This document shows positions 8,390 to 17,161 of a stretch of DNA of 29,556 bases, one piece after another (position 1 is the first letter of the stretch; every line of letters starts with the position of its first letter). The notes beneath the pieces are model-generated. The model saw only the letters and a list, made by a program, of their open reading frames with translations. It did not search any database and was not told the origin of the DNA. The stretch lies in the NCBI GenBank assembly GCA_964570405.1, contig CAZMXZ010000001.1, forward strand, positions 1-29,556. Reading direction: 5' to 3'. Source of the DNA: an uncultured Candidatus Saccharibacteria bacterium (GTDB lineage: Bacteria > Patescibacteriota > Minisyncoccia > Phycocordibacterales > XYD1-FULL-46-19). Position numbers and translations under genes: made by a program.

Positions 8390-10975
8390 CTATAACCCCA
8401 CAAGCTGCTGCATTTTGTGGCGGGTCTTGTAGCCGACGTATCCCGATACCGGAGCAATATTGTATTTTGTTTGGAATGTTTTGACGGCTCCTTCGGTGAG
8501 ATTGCCGAAATAGCCGGAGATGATCGCTTCTTGGTAACTGCCTTCGTAGATAAGATACTGCTGCAAGTCTTCCACATCTTCTCCCTGATCACCCTTCTTG
8601 AGGTCGGTATCAAAGACAATCACATCGGCTGGAATATCAAGTTTGGTTTCAGAAAGCGATATGGTGTTTAGCTCCTTCTGCGTTGCGGCATCGACAATTC
8701 CGGTTTGTGGAAGCCGGTGCTTAGTTTGGAAACGCTTGAGTGCTGCCTCAGTGAGCGATCCGAAGTAGCCAGTTATGTATTTTTCAGGATATGAATCTTT
8801 GTCTGCTGCCAGGAGCTCTTGCAAATGTTCGATCTCGATATCCTTGTTGCCTTTTTGCCACGTTTCCACGAAATGAAGGACTGGGGTCGAAGAGGCTAGC
8901 GTGCCACTTTCGTTGAACTTCACTTGTCTTACTCCGGCAACTGGGGCAATTGTAATGTTCACAGCTCTCGACGAACCTCCGCCGGAGCTGCGGGCAAAGA
9001 CTGTGTAGTTGTGAGAAACTCCATTAATTACATTGGTATCAGTAAACGTCTCGCTGTTGCCTTCGTAAATAACCTGACTGTCTCGTTCGACGACCACGTC
9101 TTCGTTCACACCCGGATTTCCGTCATTGATCTCAAAAACTACTTCGTGGTCTGCTCCCGTTACGTCAACAATCGGAGTTTCTGATTCGTCCGTAACTACA
9201 GGTGCAGGGGGTGTTGTGGAAATATTGGAAGAACTGCCGGTGGTAGTAAATGTGTAGTCCTCAGAAAAAGTAACATTTCCGACTTCGTCTGTAGATTTTA
9301 CTCGATAATGATAGGTAGTTCCTGAATTGAGATTGTTCAAAGAAATCGAATGAGAAGTAACGAGTGTTTCAGTATTCGCACTGGAAGATCCATATACGGT
9401 AAGAGGGCCATACTCAACTTGCGACGTTGCTCCTTTATCTGTTGTCCAAGAAATGGCTACCCCCGTGTTTGTCACTGATCCAGAAGAGACAGATGTAATA
9501 TTTGCCGGCGGGACTATGGGGATCGAGTAAGTGAGCGTCGCGAATTCATCATTTGGAGAAACAGTCGCAACTGATGCACCAAGCGGTTTTGATTTCACCC
9601 GGAAGATATAACCGGTATTTGGTGTAAGTCCGGTAATGGTGACTGAGTGAGATGTCGTTAGTGTTGAATCAAGCGGCGTCAGTGATCCAAAGTTTTCACT
9701 GTTGCCATATTCCACTTCTGAATCCGATGGCAAATCGGTATTCCAAGCTATTGTGACTGTCGAAGTCGAAACTGATGCCGCTTCAATTCCAGAGATGAGA
9801 ACTGGGGGAGCTTGCGGAATTGTTTGAGGAGCCTGGGAGGTAATTATCTCGCCAACCGTACCAACGGTTTCCGTCGTAAAAGAGTGCGGGCATGATGTGG
9901 CGGAATTTCCGGCAATGTCGGTAGCGTGGATACAATAGTAATAGGTGGTTCCGGCAGTGAGGCCTGTAAGAATGGCACTATGCGCAAGAAGTGCACTGAG
10001 CGACAGTGTCGCATGAGAGCCATAACTTTGGGTCGTGCCATATTCAAGGGTTGAGACAGCAAGCTCATTGGTGTCCCAGGCAAGCGTAACGTCTGTGATG
10101 CCAAGCGATGCGGTGCCGATTCCAGAGATGATAGGCGGTATAGTATCGGCAGGAGTTTGGACTTGGGCTTGAACGTTAATCGGCGCAGGAGATGAGATCG
10201 ACTCAGTCATAAGTGTCTCATCCGAAGTGATCGTCTCGTTGCCGAGCTCATCGCTCGTGATAATTCGGTAATGATAGAGAGTATTTGGAGTGAGGCCACT
10301 CAGTGCAACAGCGTGAGTTAACGCAAGAGTGGTATTAAGATTTGTCGATTCTCCATAGCCGGCAGTTGTTCCATACTCGATGCGGGCGTTACCGACCTCG
10401 CTTGTGGTGAAATTGATCGTGGCACCCGTCGTTGTGATCGAAGCAACAGTAATAAGGCTTACATCAGGCGGTGTTGTATCAACGATCACTGTTTGCGAAG
10501 CCGTGGTGAATGTATGGTCACATGAATTTGTCACGTTATTGGCAAGATCATGGGTGTGGATGCAGTAATAATATGTTGTACCGGGAATAAGACCGGTCAA
10601 AATTGCTGTGTGAGCTAGGAGTGCTGTCGCGGCGATGGTCGGGTTTGATCCATAGCTCTGTGTGGTTCCATATTCAAAGGTTGAGATGGCCAGTTCGTCT
10701 GTCGTCCAAACTAGTGTCGCATCATGTGTGGCAAGCGAAAGACTTGCCACACCAGAAATCACCGGACCAGTTGTGTCAGCGGGAGAGGTAACTATTTGCA
10801 CCACCGGCTCGGTTACGGCAGGAGGAGCAGGTTCAACATGAGGAGCGGGCGGGGCTGGCGGGGCTGGAGGTGTTTCAACTGGTGGCGGAGTGACTCCACC
10901 AAGCTGGGCGAAGACCGGAAGAGTGTTAAGCAGAAGCAATCCGATAATCACCAGAGAGGAAAAGAACTTTTTCAT
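8390..10975 (-). CDS. Secreted protein with 5 FN3-like repeats, an Ig-like domain and 2 C-terminal peptidoglycan-binding domains
   Basis: Signal peptide ending VFA; Pro-rich linker; five repeats W/F-x-T...EYG...H...L-x2-L-x-(P/A/S)-x-T-x-Y; two C-terminal LQ..L...GYFG-x-LT-x2-A-x3-FQ units. Confidence 0.9.
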   Translation of the reverse strand: MKKFFSSLVIIGLLLLNTLPVFAQLGGVTPPPVETPPAPPAPPAPHVEPAPPAVTEPVVQIVTSPADTTGPVISGVASLSLATHDATLVWTTDELAISTFEYGTTQSYGSNPTIAATALLAHTAILTGLIPGTTYYYCIHTHDLANNVTNSCDHTFTTASQTVIVDTTPPDVSLITVASITTTGATINFTTSEVGNARIEYGTTAGYGESTNLNTTLALTHAVALSGLTPNTLYHYRIITSDELGNETITSDETLMTESISSPAPINVQAQVQTPADTIPPIISGIGTASLGITDVTLAWDTNELAVSTLEYGTTQSYGSHATLSLSALLAHSAILTGLTAGTTYYYCIHATDIAGNSATSCPHSFTTETVGTVGEIITSQAPQTIPQAPPVLISGIEAASVSTSTVTIAWNTDLPSDSEVEYGNSENFGSLTPLDSTLTTSHSVTITGLTPNTGYIFRVKSKPLGASVATVSPNDEFATLTYSIPIVPPANITSVSSGSVTNTGVAISWTTDKGATSQVEYGPLTVYGSSSANTETLVTSHSISLNNLNSGTTYHYRVKSTDEVGNVTFSEDYTFTTTGSSSNISTTPPAPVVTDESETPIVDVTGADHEVVFEINDGNPGVNEDVVVERDSQVIYEGNSETFTDTNVINGVSHNYTVFARSSGGGSSRAVNITIAPVAGVRQVKFNESGTLASSTPVLHFVETWQKGNKDIEIEHLQELLAADKDSYPEKYITGYFGSLTEAALKRFQTKHRLPQTGIVDAATQKELNTISLSETKLDIPADVIVFDTDLKKGDQGEDVEDLQQYLIYEGSYQEAIISGYFGNLTEGAVKTFQTKYNIAPVSGYVGYKTRHKMQQLVGL

Positions 10976-11054
10976 ATGACCTAAGTATACTAGACGATAA
11001 CTTTAATAGATAGCAAGCATGAGCAAGATATCTTTTTTGTTATATAATTGAGGT

Positions 11055-11381
11055 ATGAACATTTCAAGAACAAAATTCGTTGTTCTCTTCCTCATTTCGA
11101 CCTTCACCTTTATGTTTATTTCGAACGCTCTTTTTGGCACAGAGGCCCGAGTTTTTCCCTGGCACGAAAAGTCTTTTTTAGGTACGGATTCACCCATAGC
11201 CTGGAAGAGTGCTGGGTATAAAATTTCATATCCTGTTAAAGTTGTTTTGATCGGACCATTTGACAATTTATTTCACGAAGATCCGCCACCCCCACTTGTT
11301 GCCGCCGTATTTGCTGCCTATTGGTCAGTCCTGGCCCTAGTTATTTATTACCTGCTTAGAAAATTAAGATCGTCTGTTTAA
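11055..11381 (+). CDS. Two-TM hypothetical membrane protein
   Basis: 108 aa with hydrophobic N- and C-terminal helices; TATAAT 6 nt upstream. Confidence 0.7.
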   Translation: MNISRTKFVVLFLISTFTFMFISNALFGTEARVFPWHEKSFLGTDSPIAWKSAGYKISYPVKVVLIGPFDNLFHEDPPPPLVAAVFAAYWSVLALVIYYLLRKLRSSV

Positions 11382-11636
11382 TACAAACTTTTGCGATGGG
11401 CTTAAAGGCTTGTTTGGCCTGTGCCCACATCCAGCCCAACAGCAGGGGCGACGTTTGCCTTGTTTAAGTTCCGAACAAACTCGTTTGATGTGATCTTTTC
11501 TTGTCTCCGGCTTTTTAACCGAGATGATCCAACAGATCCATTCATTACGGGCGAGCGGCGTAATATCTTTCCAGACAGCTAAGGCCGCCTTATCGGCCAT
11601 TAAAGCCTTTCGCAAATCAATCGGCACTTTATGCAT
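11364..11636 (-). CDS. YdeI/OmpD-associated (OmdA) family protein
   Basis: VP-x-DLRKAL, W-x2-ITPLARNEWICWI, KKPETR, GKRRPCCW-x-GC. Confidence 0.88.
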   Translation of the reverse strand: MHKVPIDLRKALMADKAALAVWKDITPLARNEWICWIISVKKPETRKDHIKRVCSELKQGKRRPCCWAGCGHRPNKPLSPSQKFVLNRRS

Positions 11637-11681
11637 CTCAATTATTTTAGCAAATTTCCGGGTTGACTTTAAGCTTTATAA

Positions 11682-11721
11682 TTGACAGTAACTTTTTATG
11701 GTGATAGTAATTTGGCTAGAG
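11682..11721 (+). promoter_or_regulatory. Promoter of the 11744-12183 two-gene unit
   Basis: TTGACA-17 bp-TAGTAA with upstream TG; AAGGAG SD follows. Confidence 0.55.
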
Positions 11722-11743
11722 ATAGAGAAAAGGAGAGAAGTTT

Positions 11744-11965
11744 ATGTGGCGTTTGCGTTACACTCAGCAGGCCTACAAAGGAGCAGTGGCCTTTGCCTGC
11801 CATATTGATTTGCCGCAAGAGATTAAGTTTGAAGAGCGGGAATTGGCGCGGGCCAAGGCCGAGGAACAGCTGACCAAAAAAATTGAGACCAGCCGCTATC
11901 CCGCTGGTTTTAATGACTTGCGACTCTGCTGGGAAGAATCTTTAAGAAAGAAGACGGAGGAATAA
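11744..11965 (+). CDS. Hypothetical protein (73 aa)
   Basis: AAGGAG SD; translationally adjacent to the next ORF. Confidence 0.7.
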   Translation: MWRLRYTQQAYKGAVAFACHIDLPQEIKFEERELARAKAEEQLTKKIETSRYPAGFNDLRLCWEESLRKKTEE

Positions 11966-11967
11966 TC

Positions 11968-12183
11968 ATGGATATTCCAAAGGATAAAAACTATCCGCTG
12001 GATAGCGTCCAGTGTGATCACTGTGGCGGGCATGGTTGCCAAAACTGCAGCAGTCGGGGATGGCTAACACCCCGCGATCATCCACTAGGCCGGAAGTGTA
12101 AGTACGCCAAGTGCGATAAGCCTCTCTCACCCAACCACCTGGCCATCTATTGCTCCAACCAGTGTGCTTACAATGATGCTTGA
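11968..12183 (+). CDS. Small Cys-rich zinc-finger protein (8 Cys)
   Basis: CDHCGGHGCQNCSSRGW (DnaJ-type CxxCxGxG) plus C-x4-C and YCSNQC; GGAGG SD; terminator follows. Confidence 0.8.
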   Translation: MDIPKDKNYPLDSVQCDHCGGHGCQNCSSRGWLTPRDHPLGRKCKYAKCDKPLSPNHLAIYCSNQCAYNDA

Positions 12184-12193
12184 GGCGACGATT

Positions 12194-12224
12194 GAGCTAG
12201 CACCCGTTTTGCTAGCTCTTTTTT
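12194..12224 (+). terminator. Intrinsic terminator
   Basis: GAGCTAGCA-7 nt-TGCTAGCTC perfect stem plus T6. Confidence 0.88.
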
Positions 12225-12239
12225 GTAATAATTAATCTA
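12221..12239 (+). repeat. 19-bp direct repeat, copy 1 (TTTTGTAATAATTAATCTA)
   Basis: Identical to 12924-12942. Confidence 0.92.
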
Positions 12240-12253
12240 ATTGGGCGCCTCTA

Positions 12254-12293
12254 TTGACTTTATGTGGCTGATATGCTATATTTGTAGGCAGAA
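12254..12293 (+). promoter_or_regulatory. Sigma-70 promoter of the 12333 gene
   Basis: TTGACT-17 bp-TATATT with extended TG, then AGGCAGAA. Confidence 0.75.
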
Positions 12294-12332
12294 GTATGGA
12301 GTCAAAATTTTAGGTGGAAGGACTTTAAGACA

Positions 12333-12878
12333 ATGGTCAATTCAACGGTCGAATCAGTCGACCACAAGTATGGTTTTACTCTACTCCTTCAGCATGGCAA
12401 AGGAATGGCGTCGAAGCATCTGGACCACTACACCAAGTATTGCCAGGAACTTCGGGACCACCCATTCGGCCTTGACCTCCCAGTCCCGAATCCTATTTTT
12501 GGTCGGGAGATCCGCTACGTTGGGGCAGGGGCGACCGACATCTCGGTCGACGTTTTCCTGGCCAACATCCGGTTTTGGACCAATTGCCATGAGAACGCTC
12601 TGGTTGAGAAACTGCGGGTGATCAATAGCCCTGATCCACGCCACACGAAGAAGGAGAACCAGCGGGTTTCCTTTGAGGTTTGGATCGGTACGCTCGTGAT
12701 CATCTCGGGCGAGACCAACAACTTCAGCGGCGCCGGCAATGCCGCCAGAAGGCAACTCGAAAACGTTTTTGCGACGCTTTCGATGATCTACGCTGTGCCG
12801 ATCGAGCGTGTCAGTCTTAAGCAGGCAGTTTCGCTTGACCAGCTCCACGGCTGGCCGGCCGTCGGCAGTCGAGTTTAA
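12333..12878 (+). CDS. Hypothetical protein (181 aa)
   Basis: Long ORF with its own promoter, a weak SD-like GGAAGGA and a terminator. Confidence 0.8.
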   Translation: MVNSTVESVDHKYGFTLLLQHGKGMASKHLDHYTKYCQELRDHPFGLDLPVPNPIFGREIRYVGAGATDISVDVFLANIRFWTNCHENALVEKLRVINSPDPRHTKKENQRVSFEVWIGTLVIISGETNNFSGAGNAARRQLENVFATLSMIYAVPIERVSLKQAVSLDQLHGWPAVGSRV

Positions 12879-12883
12879 AGTCG

Positions 12884-12927
12884 AGGGTCAGACAGATCAC
12901 CAGATTCTGTTTGGCCTTTTTTCTTTT
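12884..12927 (+). terminator. Intrinsic terminator of the 12333 gene
   Basis: GTCAGACAGA/TCTGTTTGGC 10-bp stem (with G:U pairs) followed by TTTTTTCTTTT. Confidence 0.8.
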
Positions 12928-12942
12928 GTAATAATTAATCTA
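12924..12942 (+). repeat. 19-bp direct repeat, copy 2
   Basis: Identical to 12221-12239. Confidence 0.92.
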
Positions 12943-13011
12943 GTTAATCGTCTGCTCACTTGGAAAAGATGGTCGGCATTTATAAGATAATTTAAAATTT
13001 ATGGCCTACGT

Positions 13012-13653
13012 ATGCCGCTTAAGGTCACTATTATCTTGGGCACACTCAAGCGCAAGTCCCGACGTCAATTTTCCCACACGGAGATCCTAAGCCAGATCTT
13101 AGCCGACGAGCTAGCTAAACATAATGCCAAGACGGAGATTATTCCACTAGTCGAGTACTCGATCCCACCGGGGACTAAGAGTCATATGGGCCGGGGCGAC
13201 GACTGGCCACGGATTCTCTCTAAGTTGATGGTTAGCGATATCATTATTTTAGCGACTCCAATCTGGTGGGGTGGCCATTCATCCTTGATCCAACGCGCGA
13301 TCGAGCGTCTCGATGAGCTAAATGATAAGATTGTGGAGACTGGTCAGTCAGAATTCTTAAACAAAGTTGGCGGCATCGTTATTACTGGAGCCGAAGATGG
13401 GGCCGAACACATCATTGGTAATCTGGCCAACTTCATGATTTGGAATGGCTTGACCCTGCCACCAGCCTGCTCCCTATCCTACCTGGGAAGTTACAAGGCT
13501 AAAACGGCGGCCGGCTTGAAGCGGGAGTTACTAAAGCACTCATATACTCTCGGGATGGCCCGGACGATGGCGCATAACTTAACCACTATGGCCAGAATAC
13601 TCAAGATCAATCCATTGCCAGCTCAAGAGAAGAATAGCCAGCGTCTAAATTGA
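13012..13653 (+). CDS. Flavodoxin-like NAD(P)H-dependent FMN reductase family protein
   Basis: IILGTLK, SHTEIL, DDWP, SDIIILATPIWWG, KVGGIVITG-x-EDG. Confidence 0.88.
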   Translation: MPLKVTIILGTLKRKSRRQFSHTEILSQILADELAKHNAKTEIIPLVEYSIPPGTKSHMGRGDDWPRILSKLMVSDIIILATPIWWGGHSSLIQRAIERLDELNDKIVETGQSEFLNKVGGIVITGAEDGAEHIIGNLANFMIWNGLTLPPACSLSYLGSYKAKTAAGLKRELLKHSYTLGMARTMAHNLTTMARILKINPLPAQEKNSQRLN

Positions 13654-13692
13654 TTATTAACCTGTTTTTATTAATTATTAATAAGAAAAATT

Positions 13693-14124
13693 ATGAAAAA
13701 AATGGATCCTGTCGTTCACTTCGAGATGGGTTATCAAGATAAGCAGCGGATGATTGATTTTTATACTAAAACATTTGGCTGGAAGGCCCAAATGCTTGGT
13801 CCCGAGATGGGCAATTATGTGGTAGTTCAGACAACCGAGACGGATGATAAAGGAATGGTCCAAAAACCGGGAGCGATTAATGGCGGTCTGTATAAAAAAA
13901 CTGATAGCCCGCTCTCCCATGCCCCTTCCGTCGTCATTGCCGTTGACGATATCCATGAGTCAATGAGGATGGTGGAAGCTGGCGGGGGCAAGATCTTGGG
14001 CTCGATGGATAAGGACGGGAAGCATACCAATGAGCCCCAGATGATACCGGGCGTGGGTCTGTGGATCTCGATTATGGATACGGAGGGCAACCGTGTCTCG
14101 ATGCTCCAACCTAAAGGAATGTAA
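13693..14124 (+). CDS. VOC (glyoxalase/bleomycin resistance) family protein
   Basis: VVHFE, FYTKTFGW, GAINGG, AVDDI, GGKI, IPGVG...DTEGNRVS. Confidence 0.92.
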   Translation: MKKMDPVVHFEMGYQDKQRMIDFYTKTFGWKAQMLGPEMGNYVVVQTTETDDKGMVQKPGAINGGLYKKTDSPLSHAPSVVIAVDDIHESMRMVEAGGGKILGSMDKDGKHTNEPQMIPGVGLWISIMDTEGNRVSMLQPKGM

Positions 14125-14147
14125 TTATTAATTAATTTTATAAATTT

Positions 14148-14447
14148 ATGTATATCGTTAGAGAAATTTTTACGGCCAAACCTGGTCAAGCCGGGAAGTT
14201 GGCTAAATTATTTAAAAAGGGCTGGGCCAATATGCCCAGCGCCCGCGTCCTAACCGACTTGATCGGACCTTACAACACGGTGGTGATGGAGATGGAGATC
14301 AACAGCCTGGCTGACTGGGAAAAAATGATGGCCGACTACAAAGCCGGCAAAATGGGAAAGATGGATCCGGAAGTTGGCAAAGAATTAGCTCACTACCACG
14401 AGATGTATGAGAGTGGTCGGCGCGAGGTCTATCAGATTGTTGACTGA
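14148..14447 (+). CDS. NIPSNAP-like / dimeric alpha-beta barrel hypothetical protein
   Basis: REIFTAKPGQA...RVLTDLIG-x-YNTVV-x-E-x-E...SGRREVY pattern. Confidence 0.6.
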   Translation: MYIVREIFTAKPGQAGKLAKLFKKGWANMPSARVLTDLIGPYNTVVMEMEINSLADWEKMMADYKAGKMGKMDPEVGKELAHYHEMYESGRREVYQIVD

Positions 14448-15418
14448 TTTATTTTTTGGTAGACGAGTTGGGAGAGATCACTGATAACCTTTTCCAACTG
14501 GTCAAAATTTTGACCCTGGGTCATCACGCACAAAAAGTAGGGATGGGCGGGGTAATAAATAATACCGCAATCATGGAGCTGATGTGAGATGACTTGGCCC
14601 TGCCCATCAATGCTGGTATGCTCGCCAAACTTGTGGGCCACGATCGTGCCTTTAGGCAAACTGGCCACCAAACCCTTGGTAAAGGTAGTGTAGGTCAGGA
14701 GTTGGAGAGCCTGCTCCGAGACGTTACGCGGCAGATAGGTTGAACTGTAGAGAATGCGAAAAATCGAGGAGTAGGTCCGGGGCGACATAAAGTCGGTGGT
14801 GGTAATGGTTGGCGGTGGTGCCAGTTCTAAGTCCTTAAAAACATTTACGAAACCTTGATGATTGTGATTGTAGAGGGTAGAGAGAGCGGCATTATCTGAC
14901 TCAATGATCATAGTCAAAATAAGATCATGGACCGAGTATGAGCCACTGGCCAGCGGATGCTCGGGCGGATAGTGCTGGCCCGGATCAAGCACGCGCTGGT
15001 AGGACAGGTGCTCACTTAAAATATTGGGATTAACCTCGGCCTCTTTGAGGTAGCCGATCATCATGGCCACCTTCATCATACTTGAGGGATCATAAAGCGC
15101 ATTCTCATTGACGCCGGTCCACTTGGCAGTATTAACATCACGAAAGTAAGCCGAAATGTCGCTGGCCTGATTTTTGCTAATGGCCTGATCAATGTAAGTG
15201 GCGATGGAATTTTTTAGTTGATCATACTCTGGCGCTTGGCGGGGTGAATCAACTAAGAGCAGGGGATTGATATAGTGGTAGTTTTCATCATTCTCTCTAA
15301 TCTCGATTAGGCGACCTGGTTGCCGGGCAGCGTAACTGATCCGAATAAACCAGCCAAGGGTGGCGCCTAGAAGGAGGGCAAGGCCAAGAGACCAATAAAA
15401 ACGACGGGGACTAATCAC
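14432..15418 (-). CDS. Serine hydrolase, class A beta-lactamase / PBP-like, membrane anchored
   Basis: SxxK (SMMK), SDN, K-x-G (HKFG), HDCGIIY-x-P-x2-PY-x-LCVMT; N-terminal TM. Confidence 0.88.
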   Translation of the reverse strand: MISPRRFYWSLGLALLLGATLGWFIRISYAARQPGRLIEIRENDENYHYINPLLLVDSPRQAPEYDQLKNSIATYIDQAISKNQASDISAYFRDVNTAKWTGVNENALYDPSSMMKVAMMIGYLKEAEVNPNILSEHLSYQRVLDPGQHYPPEHPLASGSYSVHDLILTMIIESDNAALSTLYNHNHQGFVNVFKDLELAPPPTITTTDFMSPRTYSSIFRILYSSTYLPRNVSEQALQLLTYTTFTKGLVASLPKGTIVAHKFGEHTSIDGQGQVISHQLHDCGIIYYPAHPYFLCVMTQGQNFDQLEKVISDLSQLVYQKINQSTI

Positions 15419-15473
15419 TCAAACATTTTACTATATTTGATTTATTGTTCAACTTATGATAGGGTTGTGGTCT

Positions 15474-15701
15474 ATGGCTCGCACTAATACCGATTTAAAA
15501 ATTAGCGAACGGCAGATCTCCCTAGCTGATTTTTTAGAGTCCTACAACAAAAATATGCCAGACAGCTTCCCGCGAGCCACCGTCGCCCTGCTCAAAGAAT
15601 TCCAGGCCGCTCATAGCTCTCTTTTTAAACATGGCAACTTGTGGTCGCTTGATCAACACCGCAAAAAATTAATGGATTGGCTGCCCCGCCAAGCCGCCTG
15701 A
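15474..15701 (+). CDS. Hypothetical protein (75 aa)
   Basis: Compact ORF ending WSLDQHRKKLMDWL. ATG 15474 lies 8 nt after TGATAGGGT. Confidence 0.7.
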   Translation: MARTNTDLKISERQISLADFLESYNKNMPDSFPRATVALLKEFQAAHSSLFKHGNLWSLDQHRKKLMDWLPRQAA

Positions 15702-15711
15702 GCACCGCTTC

Positions 15712-15750
15712 TTGACTTTTCTGCTTCATATGCTATAATGGCAGGCAGAA
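15712..15750 (+). promoter_or_regulatory. Near-consensus sigma-70 promoter of the 15785 gene
   Basis: TTGACT-16 bp-TATAAT with extended TG, then AGGCAGAA; AGGAGG SD downstream. Confidence 0.85.
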
Positions 15751-15784
15751 ATAGTGAGTTAAAATCTAGGTTAGGAGGAGTGCC

Positions 15785-16384
15785 GTGCTCGCTTGGCTCG
15801 TCACCTTCGCGCTTACCAGTTTAGTTTTCTTGGGCGGCTGGCTAGCCTACCAGGATCAAATGCTGACGGTTTTACAGATGAAACAAAAAGGCGTGACCCT
15901 TGGCCTGCCTTTCCTCGCTCATGGTGGAATGTGGGGTGATCTATTGATCATCAATATTCTACTGATGTTCATTGTCCCAAGGCATGGTAATAGTTGGTCA
16001 ACTCGATCAATTGTTATCGCCCTTATGATTGGGACAACCGTCAGTGTGATCATGCACTTTTCCTACCTCAACATAAAGTGGCCGGAAGCACATGTGCAAA
16101 ACGGACGTTTAACCCGAGCGGGCTGGGTCCACCTCGTCTATATGGCGGGGATAATGGGGGTATTGGTTCTGTTTTATTTTTACACGCCAAACCCCTCGCC
16201 TAGAATTGTTATTGCGACGTCGGCCCTACTTCTGGTCCATCTGGTTCTTGGCTTGCACTTCGTGCTCGGCTTGATCAAACCATCGTGGTATCCGGGGCGG
16301 CCACTCTCTGATCCGGCGACGTGGATCACCCTCGGCTCATCCAGCTTACTCTTGGCTTGGAGAACCTGGTACCTGATCCGCTAA
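15785..16384 (+). CDS. His-rich multi-TM hypothetical membrane protein
   Basis: 199 aa with about 6 hydrophobic segments; AGGAGG SD before GTG; terminator downstream. Confidence 0.8.
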   Translation: MLAWLVTFALTSLVFLGGWLAYQDQMLTVLQMKQKGVTLGLPFLAHGGMWGDLLIINILLMFIVPRHGNSWSTRSIVIALMIGTTVSVIMHFSYLNIKWPEAHVQNGRLTRAGWVHLVYMAGIMGVLVLFYFYTPNPSPRIVIATSALLLVHLVLGLHFVLGLIKPSWYPGRPLSDPATWITLGSSSLLLAWRTWYLIR

Positions 16385-16403
16385 CCAAGGTCACAAAATC
16401 ACT

Positions 16404-16438
16404 ATCGCTCGCGCCACCAGGCCGGGCGATTTTCTTTT
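16404..16438 (+). terminator. Intrinsic terminator of the 15785 gene
   Basis: ATCGCTC...GGGCGAT stem followed by TTTCTTTT. Confidence 0.65.
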
Positions 16439-16444
16439 ACCGCT

Positions 16445-17161
16445 CTATCGTATTACTTTATAGCCAAAGCGGCGCTTTATGGGGTGGGGGAGGAGAGCCA
16501 CCAATGTCCAATGGGTAAAAACCTTGAGCCAGCCCTCTTTAACAAAACGACGAGTGGAGGTGGCAACAAGAGTGGTGGGCCAAAAAAAGAATTGACCATA
16601 CCCCCTGGCTTGATTGATCAATTTTAAATCTTCCCCCATCCTCAAGCTCTCATCAAAATTGATTTGATCCAAAACGTCTTGCCTAATAATTTGTAAAGCG
16701 TAAGACGTTTTGGTTAAACGATGGCCAAGATCATAAAAAGCAAACCAAAACTTAGCCGTCAGACTAACCGATAGCGGCAAGATCGTGGTCGTGCCGACCA
16801 CAAAATTTTTGGTCACGTGATTTTGTAAATAAATGTTTAGATCGGCTAAGAAGTCTGGCTGCAAAATGGTGTCGGCATCCAAAAAGACTATCCACTGACT
16901 ATGCGGGCCTATTTTTTGGCGTCCCAAGTTTTTGGCCGCCGAGACGCTGGCGACTGGGCTGGTCAAAACCGTCAGATTAGTTTGAGCCAAAGCTTTGGCC
17001 ACCTCATAAGTTTGATCATTACTACCATTCTCGACCACTATCACCTCAAACCTGTCGGGGGGATAATTTTGGGCCAGCAGGTGTTTGAGGGTGTTGGCCA
17101 AATAATGTTCCTCATTGTGAGCCGGAATGATTAAGGAAAAAAAATAGGGCGGGGGAGACAT
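16445..17161 (-). CDS. Glycosyltransferase family 2
   Basis: SLIIPAHNEE, EVIVVENGSND, FLDAD (DxD), GED. Confidence 0.92.
   Translation of the reverse strand: MSPPPYFFSLIIPAHNEEHYLANTLKHLLAQNYPPDRFEVIVVENGSNDQTYEVAKALAQTNLTVLTSPVASVSAAKNLGRQKIGPHSQWIVFLDADTILQPDFLADLNIYLQNHVTKNFVVGTTTILPLSVSLTAKFWFAFYDLGHRLTKTSYALQIIRQDVLDQINFDESLRMGEDLKLINQARGYGQFFFWPTTLVATSTRRFVKEGWLKVFTHWTLVALLPHPIKRRFGYKVIR

Follow-up and report, generated by a model that had tools for sequence, protein, structure and literature searches.

Integrons combine an integrase, attC sites that are imperfect palindromes with a GTTRRRY core, and cassettes without a promoter. Phage morons are self-contained additions of a promoter, a gene and a terminator, with a deviant GC content (PMC3594210), and the pdif sites of Acinetobacter have two 11-bp arms whose inner parts are palindromic around a 6-bp centre (PMC6449649). 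Other points of comparison are Campbell-type integration at att cores and the promoter or operator modules that are reused by several genes. With these systems we compared a locus from a CPR genome, in which a gene for a 181-aa protein, provided with a promoter and a terminator, lies between two copies of a perfect 19-bp direct repeat. Our best reading, to which we give a probability of about 0.45, is that the repeat belongs to a lineage-private module at the head of genes, reused by three transcription units.

Like a moron, the 181-aa unit carries a promoter and a terminator of its own and deviates in GC content; unlike one, it lies in a region of a cellular chromosome without phage genes, is flanked by 19-bp direct repeats and uses a promoter of a host family. 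The arrangement also recalls integron cassettes, as single-gene units in one orientation are separated by a recurring short site. We considered an attC-like site and rejected it: there is no long palindrome, the bases after the 19-mer fit no GTTRRRY and the unit has its own promoter. A candidate integron integrase was likewise rejected, its score against TIGR02249 (137 bits) being below the cut-off of 265.

Organization of the locus

The window, i.e. the whole stretch of DNA that was analysed (29,556 nt), is contig C1 of a genome of 517 kb in 81 contigs, which is 91% complete, has 48% GC and finds its closest named protein relatives in Patescibacteria/Parcubacteria MAGs. It was found again solely in groundwater metagenome runs of one study, all listed as DNA. 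Independent Logan contigs from four of these runs, tested over 11200-14200, bridge both junctions, and the arrangement of the repeat is therefore real and no assembly artefact; these data are contigs at a depth of 3-5, which drop rare variants. In one run (X1), a contig ends at 12240 and the next one begins at 12242, two bases after copy 1, a pattern expected if all 31-mers across 12241 fell below the abundance cut-off; low-depth polymorphism may be involved. Elsewhere in the assembly, many contig ends carry identical stretches of at least 55 nt (e.g., C10:11722-12009 and C69:1-288, or C11:1-55 and C63:2652-2706), which we read as assembly overlaps or strain duplicates and not as biological repeats. 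The features of the locus are as follows.

12194..12218 (+): terminator hairpin of the 73-aa/71-aa gene pair, with a 9-bp stem and -16.9 kcal/mol
12219-12224 (+): T6 tract running into copy 1, whose TTTT completes the T6
12221..12239 (+): copy 1 of the 19-mer, with TG at 12224-12225 and AATAAT at 12227-12232
12240..12250 (+): semi-conserved extension of copy 1, from the three-copy alignment and nhmmer
12254..12282 (+): canonical promoter of the 181-aa gene, TTGACT-17-TATATT with TG, 10/12, sigma-70-type
12333..12878 (+): 181-aa ORF of an uncharacterised Patescibacteria family, GC 54.9%, GC3 67%
~12883..12919 (+): terminator hairpin of the 181-aa gene, -19.8 kcal/mol, z -4.06
12917-12927 (+): T6-C-T4 tail of this second terminator; copy 2 begins with the T4
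12924..12942 (+): copy 2 of the 19-mer, an exact match
12943..12953 (+): semi-conserved extension of copy 2, from the three-copy alignment
12960..12988 (+): promoter-like site upstream of the FMN reductase gene, weak (8/12), TTGGAA-17-TAAGAT, under the scanner threshold
13012..13653 (+): FMN_red gene (flavodoxin-like NAD(P)H oxidoreductase), headed by copy 2
13670..13690 (-): partial copy of the module in inverted orientation, with 81% complementarity to 12919-12939 over 21 nt

The original prediction had described a one-gene cassette bracketed by a perfect 19-bp direct repeat, and as a description it holds. The exact 19-mer, TTTTGTAATAATTAATCTA, stands on the + strand at both positions, 12221-12239 and 12924-12942, and none of 100 dinucleotide shuffles gave two matches. 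With the next three bases included, the identity is 21 of 22 as announced; beyond that point, the flanks of the two copies align locally with scores no higher than those of shuffled sequence. Each copy does begin in the T-tract of a different terminator, both hairpins fold well, and the 703-bp unit is made up of a strong promoter, the 181-aa ORF and a terminator, one of each. It contains no mobility gene: its sole ORF is that of the 181-aa protein, for which the family databases gave no match.

The partial inverted copy, located between the stop of FMN_red and the start of the glyoxalase gene, holds the exact 11-mer TAATAATTAAT, so that the FMN reductase gene stands between the direct copy 2 and this inverted sequence. 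We give it little weight because the 11-mer occurs nine times in the genome.

A third copy and the extent of the module

A search of the genome gave a third copy, identical at 18 of 19 positions, on another contig (G000:C16:8722-8740, minus strand). It overlaps the stop codon of a gene for a 126-aa membrane protein and lies 21 nt before the GTG start of a gene for a 145-aa protein. The three copies have the same orientation, each at the 3' end of one gene, and the next start codon on the same strand follows after 93, 69 and 21 nt (copies 1, 2 and 3). To the right of all three, a weaker similarity continues for 11 nt, which brings the module to ~30 nt. At six of these 11 positions the three copies agree (pattern NTTNNNCGNCT); the two window copies differ more from one another here than either does from copy 3, and 8 of the first 10 bases of the copy 2 extension match copy 3. 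The bases following the 19-mer read ATTGGGC, GTTAATC and TTTAGTC. The module contains no terminal repeats, hairpin or long palindrome, and its dyad symmetry is poor, with 4-6 of 11 arm positions complementary in the three copies. Given the third copy and the shared extension, we are therefore dealing with a three-copy module of ~30 nt with an invariant core of 18 nt, and not with a duplication made at one junction.

Such a repeat is rare in this genome. An exact direct repeat of at least 17 nt between the 5' and 3' flanks of the same gene was found for 3 of 495 genes, and among mismatched flank pairs the longest exact repeat was 14 nt, save one long match which we put down to duplicated contig ends. 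An nhmmer model made from the three copies gave no further significant match in the genome; a fourth candidate (C24:5377, nhmmer E 0.05) was set aside as chance, as it seemingly lies within coding sequence, judged by eye. BLAST did not find the module in 40 relatives. With up to one mismatch, the 18-mer gave 3 matches in 200 genomes of the order versus 1 for a control pattern, and the extended pattern had 0 matches in JGI metagenome contigs. Thirteen exact matches in IMG/VR were discarded as chance occurrences, in contigs of 27-41% GC with unrelated flanks. The module, sought in a species set that contains no genome of the same genus, thus appears to be private to this lineage: searches of the 200 genomes of the order, the 40 relatives and the JGI contigs did not find it beyond chance.

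These results speak against several ways of producing the bracket. One of the origins proposed first was a long target duplication. In its classical form, made by a transposase on insertion of the unit, it agrees with direct repeats abutting a discrete unit, and yet in our judgement it is effectively refuted: there is a copy at 18/19 on C16, the similarity runs past the repeat in all three copies, the inner ends (12240-12258 versus 12905-12923) are not complementary, with no such pair among the inverted repeats listed, and the unit holds no transposase. Moreover, 19 bp exceeds the usual target-site duplications of DDE transposases. Even less credit, likewise to the point of effective refutation, is due to a diverged tandem duplication of a gene with its spacer, or to pure chance in AT-rich spacers. 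The regular spacing and the common layout of both spacers (terminator, 19-mer, promoter) would suit a duplication, but the two genes are unrelated and their DNA shows no similarity past the repeat, while chance is excluded by the shuffles and by the genome-wide flank test. The ~30-nt module might itself be a miniature non-autonomous insertion that lands after T-tracts, in which case there would have been three independent insertions, two of them happening to flank one gene. In favour of this scenario, the three copies are almost identical, their left edges are sharp and T-rich sequence immediately precedes each of them; we nevertheless hold it to be improbable, since there are only three copies, without terminal repeats or hairpin, the right edge is graded and not sharp, and no candidate transposase is at hand.

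The core as a possible promoter

The extended -10 consensus is TGnTATAAT. The core contains TGTAATAAT at 12224-12232 and 12927-12935, and its TG-n-AATAAT agrees with 8 of the 9 consensus positions, the hexamer having the A at its second and the T at its sixth position; the remaining seven bases of the 19-mer would reach the expected start site. In this genome, the pattern TGn[AT]A[AT]AAT occurs 0.89 times per kb upstream of genes in the sense direction, 0.34 times in antisense and 0.08 times inside genes, i.e. it is 11-fold commoner upstream-sense than inside genes, and the strong promoters of this region carry TGn before their -10. We infer that the core may act as a promoter or a promoter-proximal control site; it reads as an extended -10 promoter of compact size, spanning about -16 to +1.

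On this basis, the ~30-nt intergenic module would be private to the lineage, have the 19-mer as its invariant core and head at least three transcription units, those of the 181-aa gene, of the FMN reductase gene and of the 145-aa gene on C16. The bracket around the 181-aa gene would result from two consecutive units on the same strand that both begin with the module, placed in both cases directly after the T-tract of the previous gene's terminator. Because the FMN reductase gene has a weak promoter (8/12) and the 145-aa gene no evident one, the module could be the main promoter of these two genes, and at the 181-aa gene it would be a second, tandem promoter upstream of the canonical one. The 18 bases identical in three copies exceed what a promoter or an operator needs, which points to recent copying and not to selection alone; the copies would share their origin by copying, as would other promoter/leader modules of this genome.

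Several observations go against a promoter module. At the 181-aa gene, where the promoter is already strong and its start lies ~50-70 nt downstream of copy 1, the role of this copy would be redundant, and copy 3 leaves a 21-nt leader without a Shine-Dalgarno sequence before the GTG. As the module was not found in the relatives, the JGI contigs or, beyond chance level, the genomes of the order, conservation cannot vouch for its function. An insertion would account just as well for the outlying GC3 of the ORF and for the sharp edges of the identity. GC-rich genes downstream of the module, considered as a common theme, were dismissed: the 145-aa gene has a GC3 of 0.44, below the genome mean.

Compared with reused promoter and operator modules, the copies are alike in having TGn and AATAAT 21-93 nt before start codons, always in sense, and in that other exact 17-19-mers are common to promoter or leader regions of this genome; they differ in that there are three copies only, with no conservation in relatives, and one copy stands upstream of a complete canonical promoter. 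Known families of binding sites are also far less strict than the 18-nt identity seen here. The unit would work most like a shared promoter module.

The other reused strings are of three kinds. A promoter family is present at five loci (12254-12322, 15712-15779, C31:860, C3:6448(-) and C7:3511(-)) with the signature TTGACTTT, TGn, a -10 (TATAAT), then GGCAGAA[AG]T, and an exact 19-mer beginning at the -10 is common to C1:15734 and C31:860. On the three other contigs, the family spans C31:830-880, C3:6448-6500(-) and C7:3511-3560(-), the genes behind it are unrelated, and the GGCAGAA[AG]T covers the discriminator and the first transcribed bases. An exact 17-mer, TTGCTAAAGCTAGCATA, stands at C59:1823-1839 and 2634-2650, upstream of two consecutive genes on the minus strand; it is partly palindromic, with arms TGCTA/TAGCA, is the only other non-coding flank-to-flank repeat of at least 17 nt in the genome, and looks like an operator common to neighbouring genes. 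Finally, two genes separated by 1.5 kb have in common an exact 19-nt leader, Shine-Dalgarno sequence included, which reads ACATTAAATTTGAGAGGTA (in minus-strand sense), stands at C50:833-851 and 2328-2346 and precedes each ATG by 5-6 nt. The reuse of small 5' modules thus appears, from sequence comparison, to be a habit of this genome.

Dispersed short repeats made of the units AGAAGTT or AGAAGTG (e.g., TTAGAAGTGAGAAGTTAGA) were also observed, on at least nine contigs and in both orientations, with sites at C11:5156, C13:8335, C16:902, C16:5485, C28:455, C31:16, C5:2557, C22:3735, C3:4164 and C6:6362.

The 181-aa gene and its neighbours

The 181-aa protein has no match in Pfam, PHROG, PADLOC or NCBIfam. 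Its family comprises 133 representative clusters at E ≤1e-3, mostly of roughly 150-200 aa, whose named members are hypothetical proteins of Patescibacteria MAGs, and the ORF is a real gene. An AlphaFold (AF2) model from 62 family members is confident, with a pLDDT of 89.9, and has an alpha/beta fold; the PDB and AFDB gave no convincing structural match, the best being 1wn9 (a hypothetical protein) with a Z of 7.0, within the stated noise range of the tool. Invariant or near-invariant residues in the family are H43-P44-F45, L94-R95, E115, G126 and F146.

With 54.9% GC the ORF is at the 96th percentile of the genome, and with a GC3 of 0.67 at the 98.8th. The gene was not found in the 40 relatives, and family members are lone genes scattered in unrelated neighbourhoods; by its composition and distribution, the ORF looks acquired. 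Its 5' parts have another character. The promoter and leader of the unit (12260-12322) are 71% identical over 63 nt to those of the gene at 15785, and what stands here is apparently a foreign-looking ORF behind native-type 5' parts. Since its promoter is of a native family, the unit is not a wholesale foreign transcription unit. The proposed insertion of a complete transcription unit is thereby borne out in part: the unit is self-contained and its ORF looks acquired (GC3, patchy family), but its promoter belongs to the host's own repertoire.

The unit has as neighbours the genes for the FMN reductase, a glyoxalase, OmdA and a beta-lactamase-like protein, and the upstream 71-aa gene encodes a zinc-ribbon-like protein. 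None of the six ORFs searched at 11744-16384 has a PHROG match, and Rfam gave no match across 10900-16500. Like the 181-aa gene, the 71-aa and FMN_red genes were not found in the 40 relatives; their nearest homologues, with 60-73% identity for the 71-aa gene and ~71-72% for FMN_red, are in unrelated neighbourhoods, and no relative was found with the flanking genes in synteny. The whole stretch at ~11-16 kb, the FMN_red gene included, is accessory. The closest FMN reductase homologue on a long contig (71% identity, L020:745-2232) lies ~1.8 kb from a gene for a large serine recombinase, which suggests that, in other CPR lineages, mobile DNA carries this reductase.

A possible insertion at the repeat

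The repeat could instead be the scar of an insertion, in which the 703-bp unit entered between the 71-aa and the FMN reductase genes by a single crossover at a 19-22-bp sequence, the core being duplicated thereby. This crossover would have been either site-specific, with a recombinase supplied in trans (the resident Xer, for example) working on an att-like core, or a short-homology integration of a circle, of Campbell type, and the copy on C16 would be another target or junction of the same system. A core of 19-22 bp is at the lower limit for a homologous crossover. Much of what was described above suits such an event: the identity stops sharply at 21/22 with flanks that align no better than shuffles, the unit is self-contained, the ORF is a compositional outlier, neither it nor its two neighbours was found in the 40 relatives, and the gene family is scattered in unrelated contexts. 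Furthermore, a precise deletion of the unit would leave an ordinary spacer of terminator, T6 and promoter, and an identical core with semi-conserved arms has the look of att sites.

We nevertheless consider this scar rather unlikely. The search for an empty site that had been suggested was done: no joint skipping the unit (12220-12943) appears in the contigs of the four low-depth runs, data too thin to weigh against an insertion, and there is no syntenic relative in which to look for it. Two observations had been named that would speak against an insertion, namely the lack of an empty-site allele and a genome-wide recurrence of the 19-mer; no such allele was found, but with three copies the 19-mer is not genome-wide. 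The homologues of the 181-aa gene, which had also been proposed for inspection, have no bracketing repeats in three other lineages (four contigs). There are two further objections: the unit carries a promoter of a host family, and to release a circle of just this one unit, the donor would already have needed the bracket.

The att-like core of the original prediction fares in the same divided way: an identical core is present at both junctions, but there is no integrase in the unit and no cognate recombinase beside it, and no empty site was seen in the four thinly covered runs. Like elements that integrate at att cores by the Campbell mechanism, the locus has unrelated sequence outside the identical core, and semi-conserved arms; unlike them, it has no integrase and its cargo is one 181-aa gene. 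The sole tyrosine recombinase of the genome is of Xer type, a 289-aa ORF on C63 (247 bits with the XerD model; 240 bits with that of XerA, whose cut-off is 220), and no serine recombinase was found in this genome (91% complete).

A resident Xer as the only recombinase is a likeness with dif/Xer-dependent elements. As in pdif modules, the genes come without their own recombinase, with sites of ~28-30 bp of which one part is strongly and one weakly conserved; in contrast to pdif modules, the dyad symmetry is poor and the sites flank the gene in direct orientation. A dif-like site was rejected: when compared with a dif consensus, the copies reach 19-20 of 28, where the background has its 95th percentile at 19 and its maximum at 22, and the complementarity of the arms is 4-6/11. 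The 3' end of a tRNA-Gln gene was another candidate and was dropped, as the module does not resemble tRNA-Gln 3' ends; nowhere else in the genome do the 3' ends of the two tRNA-Gln genes (on C2 and C9) recur. The module resembles att cores and dif modules in outline only and fails their defining features where these can be tested.

The module and the insertion readings can be combined, with a reused module serving as portable homology for the exchange of units. In a wider form, the ~30-nt module would be the crossover site of a recombinase-poor route of gene gain in CPR, units being spliced in directly behind terminators by the single resident Xer or by short-homology Campbell integration; the window would then represent one recent event and C16 a spare site. 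We find such a general route doubtful, and less probable than a single scar. The reused gene-head signal is more likely than the scar of a single insertion because a third copy exists elsewhere in the genome.

Implications

CPR/Patescibacteria have tiny genomes with many lineage-specific orphan genes, and this genome has almost no classical mobile-element machinery. The finding, a repeat-flanked, GC-rich and self-contained gene in a CPR genome, is modest. Were it true that such modules mark the points where stand-alone genes are spliced in, they would reveal a simple and so far undescribed route of gene gain. If the repeat is a copied promoter-type signal, which we judge likelier, the genome would build its accessory transcription units from a few reused parts; this would be unsurprising in itself and useful for the annotation of promoters in unculturable organisms.
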